From the NCBI GenBank assembly GCA_030599585.1, contig JAUVNS010000009.1, forward strand, positions 1-64,000: a DNA stretch of 64,000 nucleotides, read 5' to 3'. The position numbers and the translations under genes are program-made. This DNA is from Promethearchaeota archaeon. GTDB taxonomy: Archaea; Asgardarchaeota; Lokiarchaeia; Sigyniarchaeales; SOKP01. The number at the start of each line of letters is the position of its first letter. The stretch's first letter is position 1. Positions 61,128-64,000 of the stretch are shown in pieces. A model generated the notes under the pieces. The model was given only the letters and a program-made list of their open reading frames with translations, did no database searches and had not been told where the DNA came from.

Positions 61128-61835
61128 ATGAAAGGACCTAAAATTCTAAGAGATCATTTTGATAGCGTTACATACTCTGAAAATCACTTGAAACTATTAC
61201 AACAAAAAAGAGAACGATCTAAAACGTTGCTGGAGATGTTCGTTAAAGAGGGTTTGAATCCATTTATTTATGGTAGTATTGCTCGAGGTGATATTCATAA
61301 CGATAGCGATATCGACATGGTTTTAATACAATCAATCGCACCGTATCAAATAGAAATAATACTTGAAAAAAATGGTTTTAAAAATTACTTCCGAGAAATT
61401 ATTATGGCAACTCCCGCTGACACTTTGAAACTCTACATTTATTTGAACGAATTAGAAAGCATAACAATTCCATTATCTAAGTTCAATAAAAAATCAAGCG
61501 AATTTTACGATTTTGGAGGAAAAATTAATCTAAACCAAATTTTAAATAGTATTCGAGTGCCTGGAATCAATAAAAGGTTAGTTTTTATTCAACCTACTTC
61601 TGATGGTCATGAAGAATATTCGATTATTGGAAATGAAAATTTAGCTGCAAAGCAGTTGAGTGTTGGAATTAATTTGATTAATGAAAGAAAGAGAGTTCTT
61701 TTAAGAAGAGAGAAATTTGGAAAAACAGGCGTATTTTTAAAGAGATCAATAGGGGTGGGAGAGACAACAGAGCTCGTTTTAAAAAAATTAAGCAATAAAA
61801 ACACCATTGTAAGAAAAAAACTATTACAAAGATGA
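61128..61835 (+). CDS. Archaeal nucleotidyltransferase (COG2413-like)
   Basis: YGSIARGDIH.DSDID, EFYDFGG, RVPGINKRL, R.K.GKTGVFL. Confidence 0.85.
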   Translation: MKGPKILRDHFDSVTYSENHLKLLQQKRERSKTLLEMFVKEGLNPFIYGSIARGDIHNDSDIDMVLIQSIAPYQIEIILEKNGFKNYFREIIMATPADTLKLYIYLNELESITIPLSKFNKKSSEFYDFGGKINLNQILNSIRVPGINKRLVFIQPTSDGHEEYSIIGNENLAAKQLSVGINLINERKRVLLRREKFGKTGVFLKRSIGVGETTELVLKKLSNKNTIVRKKLLQR

Positions 61836-62983
61836 GAGATCTAGAGATTTTAGAATCCAAAGCACAGACCTTTTACGTAAAGAAAGAAGGAATTCCTAAA
61901 GGATGCCAACAATGTTTAAAAGGTACTAAAGCAGTATTATTTCTTAATGGAATCTGTCAGAACCCAAAACACTGTTGGTGGTATTGTCCAATTTCTGAAA
62001 AACGAAAAGGTAAGAAAGATACATATATAAATGAGATTCAAATATCTTCTAAAGAGCAGATACTGCACGAACTTAAAGCTATTAATGCGAAAGGTATGAG
62101 CATTACGGGGGGAGACCCATTATATGAACCCAACTTAAAAAAAACGCTTGAATATATTAAATTCATCAAAAAAATTAAAGGAAAAAAGTTTCATATTCAT
62201 CTTTATACCAACGGTCTTAATTTTAGCGAAGAAATTGCGATAAAACTCGCACGAGCAGGGTTAGACGAAATTAGATTCAACCCATCAAAAGATAATTGGA
62301 ATGTGATGAAATACGCATTAAATAAGGGTATGTCTGTAGGAGCTGAAGTACCTGTGATTCCAGAAGTGGAGTATATAGAAAATTTGAAAAAATTCATTTT
62401 TTATTTAAACAAAATAGGCGCAGACTTTATCAATTTGAATGAATTTGAGTATAGTTTACCCAATAGCCAAAATTTACTAGAACGTAATTTCAAATTGGAA
62501 GCAGGTACAATAGCTTCTGTAAAGAATAGTAAAGAGTGTGCAATGAAGCTCATACATGATATCGTTCCAAAAGTTACAATAAAAATTCATTTTTGTACGA
62601 TTATAGCTAAGGATTATTGGCAATTGAGAGAAAGGTACTTGAGACGCGCAAAAACTGTTAAATTAAAATACGAAGAAATCACGAGAGAAGGGTTGCTATT
62701 ATACGCTCTAATAGAAGGCAAGGAGAAGGATATTAAAGAGTTTTGTAATCTTTTATTAAATGAACTAAAAGTCCCTCAAAACTTCTTATCTTGCGAAGCA
62801 ACTTATCTTAAATTACCCATAAAGTTTGCTATGGAAGAAAGATTATTGGATTTACTGAATCAACATAATTTACAAGGATACATAATAGAAATGACACCCT
62901 TTCGAGAAGAAAAATATCAACAAATAACGGAAAAAACACCTATCAAGTTATTCAAAGAAGAGATGCGACTTAATGATTATTGA
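61832..62983 (+). CDS. Radical SAM protein (COG2108-like)
   Basis: PKGCQQC..G.KAVLF, Cys cluster, ITGGDP, HIHLYT, GLDEIRF, NLNEFEYS. Confidence 0.85.
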   Translation: MRDLEILESKAQTFYVKKEGIPKGCQQCLKGTKAVLFLNGICQNPKHCWWYCPISEKRKGKKDTYINEIQISSKEQILHELKAINAKGMSITGGDPLYEPNLKKTLEYIKFIKKIKGKKFHIHLYTNGLNFSEEIAIKLARAGLDEIRFNPSKDNWNVMKYALNKGMSVGAEVPVIPEVEYIENLKKFIFYLNKIGADFINLNEFEYSLPNSQNLLERNFKLEAGTIASVKNSKECAMKLIHDIVPKVTIKIHFCTIIAKDYWQLRERYLRRAKTVKLKYEEITREGLLLYALIEGKEKDIKEFCNLLLNELKVPQNFLSCEATYLKLPIKFAMEERLLDLLNQHNLQGYIIEMTPFREEKYQQITEKTPIKLFKEEMRLNDY

Positions 62984-63419
62984 TACCGTCACTCTTAAGG
63001 ATTTAGACGAAATCTACAATTTAGAAAGAAGATCTTTTAAGAAAGACTCATTTTCTAAAGAATTAATTCTTAATTTGATAATAAAGAACACATGTTTTTT
63101 TAAGCTCATTGATGACGAATCATCGAATAGTATTATTGGGTTCATCATTATTATTCAAGATCGAGAAGAAAGAGTAAACTTAATTAACTTTTTAATTAAA
63201 AAAGGGGAAAGAAAAAGAGGTTATGGGAGTTTTCTCTTAAGACACACCCTGAAAAAAGTAAAAACTATAGATAAGATTAAAACAATTGTATTGAATGTAA
63301 ACTCCAAAAATAAAGCTGCTATTAGTTTGTATCAAAAATTTGATTTTCGAATTGCCCAAAGAATAGAAAATTATTATCGGGACAAGCAAAGCGCTTACTT
63401 AATGATATTGGACATTTAA
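62973..63419 (+). CDS. rimI: GNAT N-acetyltransferase (RimI/Ard1-like)
   Basis: RKRGYGS acetyl-CoA motif, LNV...N.AAI.LY.K, NYY...AYLM. Confidence 0.8.
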   Translation: MIIDTVTLKDLDEIYNLERRSFKKDSFSKELILNLIIKNTCFFKLIDDESSNSIIGFIIIIQDREERVNLINFLIKKGERKRGYGSFLLRHTLKKVKTIDKIKTIVLNVNSKNKAAISLYQKFDFRIAQRIENYYRDKQSAYLMILDI

Positions 63420-63528
63420 TCATTTTCTAAAAACCAAGACTTATAAATAAATTCTATTACAAATTGTGTATAGAACGCATTGATAATGTGCTCATAAAAG
63501 GAAACTAAACAAAAAGGTTTGAATTATT

Positions 63529-63681
63529 ATGTCGTTAGGAAACGAATTAAAAGACGAAATTAAAAAAGGTGTTGCTCTCCAAAAGGTTGACGATGAAGAA
63601 ATGAAAAAACGCGAAGAAGAGAAGAAGAAACGAATGGAAGAATTAGAAAAAGTCAAACAAGCCTTAGGAGCAACAGATTAA
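63529..63681 (+). CDS. 50-aa protein absent from the ORF track, with a WH2-like motif and charged helix
   Basis: Hand translation MSLGNELKDEIKKGVALQKVDDEEMKKREEEKKKRMEELEKVKQALGATD; ATG start after AAAGG, coding-like composition, T-rich terminator downstream. Confidence 0.7.
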   Translation: MSLGNELKDEIKKGVALQKVDDEEMKKREEEKKKRMEELEKVKQALGATD

Positions 63682-63730
63682 CACACACAACAGTGTTTTT
63701 TGTATTTTTATATTTTTTTTCTTTATTCTT
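63680..63730 (+). terminator. Probable terminator (short hairpin plus poly-T)
   Basis: AACAC...GTGTT followed by long T tracts right after the stop codon. Confidence 0.45.
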
Positions 63731-63832: not shown

Positions 63833-64000
63833 ATGAAAATTCTGGATATTGATAAGAAGGAGGAAACAGTTTCATTAAGAATCGAAGATTTAAACGATCT
63901 ATGGACGCTCTATAATATTATTGCCAAAAATGACCAAGTAACTTCACGAACAAACCGTAGAATAGTTTTAAAAGAGGGTTCTAAAGGAGAAAGAAAACAA
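63833..64000 (+). CDS. pelA: Pelota/Dom34 (5' part, truncated by the window end)
   Basis: Hand translation MKILDIDKKEETVSLRIEDLNDLWTLYNIIAKNDQVTSRTNRRI, matching the pelota N-terminal E..DDLW.L motif. Confidence 0.88.
   Translation, partial: MKILDIDKKEETVSLRIEDLNDLWTLYNIIAKNDQVTSRTNRRIVLKEGSKGERKQ

Follow-up and report, generated by a model that had tools for sequence, protein, structure and literature searches.

In the genome of a Promethearchaeota archaeon, an open reading frame of only 50 residues lies between the genes for a GNAT acetyltransferase and pelota, which raises the question of whether so short a frame is a gene and, if so, whether its product acts on actin. The frame lies near the 3′ end of the window, the whole 64,000-nucleotide stretch of contig JAUVNS010000009.1 that was analysed. 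The original prediction, made from the letters of the DNA, had described a stand-alone WH2-like microprotein (P0001) encoded between rimI and pelota and followed by a T-rich terminator. Coordinates and translation of the frame match that description exactly, and the flanking genes and the T tracts are where it had placed them. The features of the locus are listed below; the Pfam names of GNAT and pelota were taken from locus L076, which is 90-94% identical.

62973-63419, + strand: upstream neighbour, a GNAT (RimI/Ard1-like) acetyltransferase gene, from the ORF and Pfam on L076.
63441-63451, + strand: A/T-rich TATA-like element about 80 nt 5′ of the start codon, read directly from the sequence; a possible promoter of the small gene itself.
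63529-63681, + strand: ORF of the 50-residue mini-protein P0001, with ATG start and TAA stop, orthologs and purifying selection.
63535-63567, + strand: residues 3-13, N-terminal amphipathic helix (L7, I11), WH2-like; AF2 helix with block-mean pLDDT 83-91, in register with the WH2 helix.
63568-63591, + strand: residues 14-21, non-helical loop with G14 and L17-Q-K-V20-D21, an LKKV-like motif, from AF2 and conservation.
63592-63672, + strand: residues 22-48, long helix, all-charged in its ER/K core (R28-R35) and amphipathic towards its end; AF2 pLDDT up to 96.
63696-63720, + strand: oligo-T tracts T6, T5 and T8 just 3′ of the stop codon, read directly from the sequence; likely to function as an archaeal transcription terminator.
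63833-64000, + strand: downstream neighbour, pelota (eRF1 domains 1-3), starting near 63833 and running past the window end, from the ORF and Pfam on L076.

Upstream of the GNAT gene, positions 61128-62983 hold a nucleotidyltransferase (PF01909-type) gene and a radical-SAM gene with overlapping start and stop codons, and both belong to the conserved gene string around P0001.

Using a six-frame search, an open frame was found at the equivalent position in 24/24 genomes of the genus, encoding 50-64 residues with one cut to 34, and a match was present in 63 of the 68 genomes of the window's family (f1). A collection of 5.8 billion proteins yielded 237 relatives of 27-88 residues, with lengths of 48-52 residues among the 120 matches listed. 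Across 42 distinct orthologous DNA sequences, pN/pS was 0.15 and the JC-corrected dN/dS was 0.09, a ratio biased somewhat downward because the sequences were chosen by residue pattern. P0001 was 69-96% identical across loci where the adjacent GNAT was 41-55% and pelota 54-66% identical. Public annotations call the small gene in several MAGs, and an ortholog is called in the genome that we take to be that of the cultured Prometheoarchaeum syntrophicum MK-D1 (G038; GCA_008000775.2, CP042905.2). A chance ORF in an A+T-rich spacer might be suspected from the low-complexity composition and from a length below common gene-caller size limits, but the occurrence across genus and family, the dN/dS, the identity above that of the neighbours and the public annotation all argue against it; this explanation is exceedingly improbable and was rejected on conservation and dN/dS. 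ORF 63529-63681 is a genuine gene under strong purifying selection. Few unannotated microproteins of these genomes are as conserved as its product, which is probably well expressed.

Conservation was read from a 23-sequence ortholog set and from an alignment of 71 diverse members. In the 71-sequence alignment L17 was the sole invariant column, and G14, E31, K32, K34, R35, E38 and L39 were at least 90% conserved; in the 23-sequence set, I11 and G14 were conserved to at least 90%. The I..G..L.KV residues, on whose conservation the original prediction depended, are kept, and at the end of this stretch P0001 reads LQKV where many homologs read LKKV. The AF2 model built with the 71-sequence alignment (pLDDT 89.3, pTM 0.46) consists of a helix at residues 3-13, a non-helical segment at 14-21 and a helix at 22-48. 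The best-conserved part of the family is the charged ER/K-type helix, for which WH2 has no counterpart. Residues 26-35 are all charged with an acid-base pattern at i/i+4, which, as read from the sequence, is an ER/K single-helix signature and not a coiled-coil core, and M36, L39, V42 and L46 form an amphipathic patch at the helix end. A Foldseek search of the AF2 model against the PDB gave no match, and VIA-align over 48,161 chains returned nothing beyond generic helices, either long single ones or coiled coils, with a best Z of 4.3, a result uninformative for or against WH2.

Scoring with the Pfam WH2 model (PF02205, gathering cut-off 23.1 bits), which the original prediction had proposed as a check, gave a divided answer: P0001 itself had no match at E<=10, but the homolog P0149, 57% identical to P0001 over 42 residues, scored 23.7 bits, just above the cut-off. 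An ortholog (L024) and the members P0143, P0144, P0158 and P0176 scored 13-16.5 bits, below the cut-off, and among the 71 members a weak WH2 match was seen in 5 and an equally weak DUF3006 match in 22. No match to PF02205 at E<=10 was found in any of the six frames of the window's own genome, whereas the same model matched at that level in 8 of 14 control genomes. Pfam and NCBIfam searches of P0001 gave no match to WH2, thymosin or TMA7 and otherwise only weak noise.

Comparisons based on family profiles indicated a resemblance. The best PDB match of the 23-ortholog profile among 177,635 sequences was the N-WASP tandem WH2 construct 3m3n_W (E 4.8e-4, a sum over three repeats of which each single one scores only 6-9 bits), and N-WASP 2vcp_D was also among the matches. 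Through an exhaustive search of 1.84 billion proteins, the family profile retrieved P0181 and P0189, which score as WH2 in Pfam with 80.8 and 27.2 bits. Aligning the family with the ten WH2 repeats of these two proteins by hhalign gave 78% probability (E 1.8e-5), a comparison biased by the retrieval of the repeats with the family's own profile, and put L7, I11, G14, L17, K19 and V20 in register. The most conserved residues of the N-terminal half, I, G and L at a spacing of 3+3, correspond to I, G and L positions that are invariant, or nearly so, among the repeats. The hhalign probability to WH2 was 53% for a subgroup of homologs with an acidic, Trp-bearing tail (the W-tail subgroup), compared with 17% for the second-order family described below. 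The proposal that L..EIKKGVALQKV fits the WH2 spacing was thus borne out by the register in the profile searches.

Like WH2 (N-WASP, WAVE, WIP, MIM, Spire and bacterial mimics), the family has a short amphipathic helix of about three turns in the AF2 model and alignments, a Gly-bearing variable linker and a Leu-x-Lys-Val segment at equal spacing, with conserved I/G/L, and it is modular, occurring singly or in tandem and beside other actin-related domains. Unlike WH2, P0001 fails the Pfam model and has one basic residue in LQKV instead of two, and the family carries an obligatory, better-conserved charged helix of 27 residues and is known from two archaeal orders only. Judged on these sequence comparisons, P0001 resembles WH2 and is a candidate, not a demonstrated, member of that family. 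The original prediction had further likened the second helix to the WH2-central (C) arrangement of WASP/WAVE proteins, and this part found no support: the second helix is of ER/K type, which WH2 lacks, and the acidic tail with Trp that marks the WCA region of WASP/WAVE is absent from P0001, being present in some homologs. ARPC4 was not found in five genomes by a search that is weak, as it gave no match in any control genome either.

Beta-thymosins (PF01290; thymosin beta-4, ciboulot, tetrathymosin) share other traits with P0001. They are stand-alone proteins of 43-50 residues with a helix, an LKKT-like segment and a second helix, and tandem repeats of them also occur; the same layout of a stand-alone peptide of about 45 residues with helix, extended motif and helix is seen in the AF2 model. 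In P0001, by contrast, a much shorter linker leads from the motif to the second helix, which has three times the length of its thymosin counterpart and an ER/K character. PF01290 was absent among the P0001 Pfam matches at E<=10, and neither the thymosin model nor the LKKTET signature assigns P0001 to that family. In a cluster of protein-language-model neighbours, Thymosin was named in 52% of members (score 0.83), which serves as a lead only.

The commonest weak Pfam match was DUF3006 (PF11213), which covered the loop and charged helix in 22/71 members with a best E of 4e-4. Membership was set aside, as scores in the tables shown are about 14 against a cut-off of 32.3 bits and the family's undefined function explains nothing. 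TMA7 (PF09072) had no match at E<=10 in P0001 or in the six frames of its own genome.

In the literature searched, the main Asgard actin regulators named are profilins and gelsolins (PMC12050087 among the sources), and the WH2-like elements described in Asgard archaea are only four-residue linkers inside gelsolins, whose LKKT-type motif lies on actin in crystal structures (PMC9433394, PMC7444086, bioRxiv 10.1101/2025.11.30.690169). These linkers (LRRV, LKHV, LVDV and LKDV) resemble the P0001 segment as LKKT-type motifs of Asgard proteins but are short stretches of four residues that connect gelsolin domains; they lack a WH2 helix before the motif and do not form a module of their own. Arcadin-2 of Crenarchaeota, which depolymerises crenactin filaments as cited in PMC12050087, is likewise a short archaeal element acting on an archaeal actin homolog, yet it has no sequence relation to P0001 or LKKV-type segment and belongs to a different lineage with a different actin. 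In the searched literature pairing thymosin or WH2 with Asgard, no stand-alone WH2-like peptide was described.

With the family profile, the unit was found in 63/68 genomes of f1 and 7/7 of f2, and with a single protein as query in 1/1 genome of f3 and 4/4 of f4, all families of the same order. Applied to 226 genomes from 28 further families of the phylum, the family profile gave two marginal matches. Following up one of these uncovered a second family, with proteins of 57-61 residues, in every genome (19/19) of another order, f16; the MAGs of that order are labelled Hermodarchaeia, Hermodarchaeota, Thorarchaeota or Promethearchaeota at NCBI. Its members are the following.

L111:774-956, + strand (G092:C6), with L113-L124 and L136-L142: second-family small proteins, alignment A5.

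The N-terminal helix and a Gly-x-x-Leu segment are common to the second family and the Loki-type family. The second family also has a C-terminal motif in common with the f2 orthologs, whose sequences close with an acidic, Trp-bearing tail. Using hhalign, it matched the W-tail (f2) subgroup with 95% probability (E 3.9e-8, 51 columns) and the whole Loki-type family with 83.5%. PDB and Pfam searches for WH2 in the second family gave none, in keeping with its 17% in hhalign. By these profile comparisons the second-order proteins are a diverged homologous family, and the family as a whole spans two Asgard orders, being neither pan-Asgard nor confined to one order. It was not found in the other 27 families of the phylum sampled. 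Conservation across Asgard genomes, which the original prediction had asked about, was accordingly seen in two orders (f1-f4 and f16), but does not extend across the phylum. Because the family is found in two Asgard orders only, its likeness to eukaryotic WH2 may be convergent. Homologs were found in Asgard lineages only, and the window's own genome has a eukaryote-like actin. The gene neighbours of the second family are an FMN reductase and an acylphosphatase.

Beyond these small proteins, the unit occurs within longer ones. A word-indexed search for longer relatives returned nothing, because low-complexity words crowd out relatives, and an exhaustive HMM search found them. The unit of about 45 residues is modular, and P0001 is its stand-alone form, specific to some Asgard archaea. 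Tandem arrays are proteins of 479-497 residues with up to nine profile-detectable units. The MK-D1 genome encodes one of 479 residues (L021:2312-3748, − strand) with nine detectable units, and also a 55-residue small ortholog (L135:3243-3407, + strand) that has an acidic tail with Trp and adjoins a ZPR1-like zinc-finger gene, not pelota. AF2 modelled the MK-D1 tandem protein, from a shallow 8-sequence alignment, with no compact fold (pLDDT 62.5, pTM 0.18) and with 13 helices, mostly of about 36 residues, joined by loops about 8-11 residues long; the majority of the loops overlap low-confidence stretches and carry LKKV-like segments. The model weakly suggests a string of linear motifs rather than a solenoid.

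Fusions join the unit to several kinds of domain. Those with profilin (P0162, P0175 and P0193, and L144 and L145 from genomes of the window's family) consist of a profilin domain, one to four units and a C-terminal domain of about 55 residues. The N-terminal domain of P0175 matches solved Asgard profilins (5zza_P with E 5e-8, and also 5yed, 5zzb and 7pbh), and Pfam Profilin scored P0162, P0175 and L144 at 19-22 bits, below its cut-off, which the divergent Asgard profilins are not known to reach. The conserved domain of about 55 residues that follows the units in P0162, P0175, P0193, L144, L145, P0166 (44-99) and P0182 has no Pfam match. In two genera of the window's family, a Ras-family GTPase is followed by the unit and an RHH domain (L143:927-1982, − strand; L147:648-1733, + strand; L148:989-1939, − strand), with Ras-family scores of 99-113 bits in L143 and L148 and with L147 near-identical to L143. 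LRR fusions carry the unit and then a zinc finger or RHH (P0172, P0179, P0185 and L146), and RHH fusions with the unit are found in the window's own genus (L030 and P0192). The unit usually directly precedes the RHH domain. Since in most fusions the family profile aligns only from position 12-19 onwards, past helix 1, the loop and charged helix form the constant core; in the profilin fusions a hydrophobic helix, judged by eye, still precedes this core at equal spacing.

The actin, profilin and gelsolins that the original prediction attributed to Asgard archaea are all present in the window's own genome, on contigs other than that of the window. Four actin-family genes were found, and the scores of one Lokiactin were 442 bits with the Pfam Actin model and 543 bits against a eukaryotic actin; in the alignment, this Lokiactin keeps the segments that line the WH2 cleft, between subdomains 1 and 3, in rabbit-actin structures. 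There are at least four gelsolin-domain genes, and two profilin-like proteins, each about 200 residues long, that carry a conserved extension at the C-terminus and no unit (L042:890-1492, − strand, G000:C3; L043:784-1443, − strand, G000:C50), the former matching the solved Asgard profilins 7pbh and 5zza with E 1e-10 to 6e-11. In three genomes of the genus, a profilin-like domain is fused to a TrmB-type HTH in proteins of about 400-414 residues encoded directly beside a Lokiactin gene.

L044:1104-2345, + strand (G020): profilin-HTH fusion.
L045:1261-2520, − strand (G005): profilin-HTH fusion.
L046:1292-2494, − strand (G012): profilin-HTH fusion.

The profilin-HTH fusion could be an actin-sensing transcription regulator. 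With it, a fusion of an actin-binding with a DNA-binding domain already exists in the genus, and the unit-RHH fusions share its layout.

The reading that we favour over the others is that the P0001 unit may be a WH2/thymosin-like actin-docking module with an added ER/K helix, and we give direct actin binding a probability of roughly 40%; for a role of any kind in the actin cytoskeleton, we regard the case as evenly balanced. In the mechanism that we infer for the steps involving actin, the unit would be a linear docking module whose N-terminal helix (L7, I11) sits in the hydrophobic cleft on the barbed face of a Lokiactin monomer, with the extended G14..L17-x-K19-V20 segment following the surface of actin in the manner of WH2 and beta-thymosin. 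The ER/K helix would have one of two roles: it would extend further up actin, like thymosin's second helix, or it would be a rigid spacer and bind a second partner through its amphipathic end. The free peptide might buffer actin monomers or hand them over, units fused to profilin, Ras-type GTPases, LRR or RHH might tie these partners to actin, and tandem arrays could line up several monomers. This reading is favoured by the WH2 register, the profilin fusions, the host's own Lokiactin, gelsolins and profilins and the thymosin-like AF2 layout. It is weakened by the Pfam WH2 miss, the charged helix being the best-conserved part, the lack of actin-gene neighbours and the occurrence in two orders only. 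As WH2 and profilin sites on actin overlap, the profilin fusion would not simply reflect co-binding of one monomer.

The fusions also fit a different account, in which the unit serves as a helix that docks onto, or regulates, something other than actin (such as profilin, a GTPase/LRR system or RHH), the free 50-residue form is a small regulator or competitor of those interactions, and the resemblance to WH2 arose by coincidence. RHH domains, LRRs and Ras-type GTPases, and not cytoskeletal proteins, make up most of the fusion partners, the unit usually stands immediately before the RHH domain in protein order, and what the fusions conserve as a core is the loop with the charged helix rather than helix 1. 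Since domains joined in one protein often interact, the profilin fusion would be accounted for as well. This account, which we consider rather unlikely, leaves the WH2 register of the N-terminal half and the invariant I/G/L unexplained, as well as the arrays of up to nine units and the fact that no other form is as conserved or as widespread as the stand-alone copy. A specific partner might even be dispensable if the protein were a structural ER/K single alpha-helix or short coiled coil serving as a spacer or oligomerisation piece, as the E/K-rich helix with its i/i+4 salt-bridge pattern, the structure search that returned only long helices and coiled coils (best Z 4.3) and weak Pfam matches to coiled-coil families would suggest. 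The wholly charged residues 26-35 would, however, leave no coiled-coil core, and neither the conservation of nearly every residue (69-96% identity against 41-66% for the neighbours) nor an invariant Leu in the loop would be expected of such a piece, which makes it improbable.

The gene neighbourhood could point elsewhere, to a small translation factor working with pelota, ZPR1 or aEF1-alpha, or to a substrate of the adjacent N-terminal acetyltransferase. In the loci examined, the small gene was never beside actin, gelsolin or profilin genes, its neighbours being GNAT, pelota or ZPR1. Across f1 the genes run radical-SAM, GNAT, small gene, pelota, radical-SAM with essentially no variation, and part of this arrangement survives in f2 and f3 genomes where the neighbouring proteins are only 30-45% identical. 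Adjacency to GNAT is kept across f1, in f2 and f3 genomes and on metagenome contig L109, and the small gene adjoins a ZPR1-like gene in MK-D1, in G028 and on L109. A translation role is a live rival because pelota and ZPR1 are both EF1A partners. Nevertheless, the small gene has its own terminator-like T tracts and a gap of roughly 150 nt before pelota, its neighbours in f4 are unrelated (a MoxR ATPase and BtpA), P0001 matches neither TMA7 nor any family of ribosomal or translation proteins, and the fusion partners include no translation protein; we hold a translation link to be improbable.

Should the actin-docking reading be correct, at least two Asgard orders, with MK-D1 among their members, would have a dedicated actin-monomer-binding module of WH2/beta-thymosin type, free, in tandem (up to nine) and fused to profilin, Ras-type GTPases and DNA-binding domains, a broader claim that we put forward tentatively and as distinctly less than probable. 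If true, it would extend the Asgard actin regulators past profilins and gelsolins to a third class, with archaeal counterparts of tandem-WH2 nucleators and actin-sensing transcription factors. Monomer sequestration, tandem-motif nucleation and actin-coupled signalling or transcription would then have arisen in archaea, by descent or convergence, which would bear on the extent of the eukaryotic actin toolkit that was present, or within evolutionary reach, before eukaryotes arose. If the unit does not bind actin, it would be a promiscuous domain with an unassigned role and P0001 a highly conserved microprotein. The proposal is directly testable, as the peptide can be synthesised and the cultured MK-D1 carries genes for the small protein as well as for a tandem-array protein; Asgard actin-binding proteins act on rabbit actin.

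Finally, a 62-kb contig with the Asgard locus (L084; DATKTW010000134.1) is deposited under a MAG labelled 'Candidatus Nanopelagicaceae bacterium'. Its small gene is 86% identical and its radical-SAM, GNAT and pelota genes are 85-90% identical, and the label is probably a binning or labelling error.
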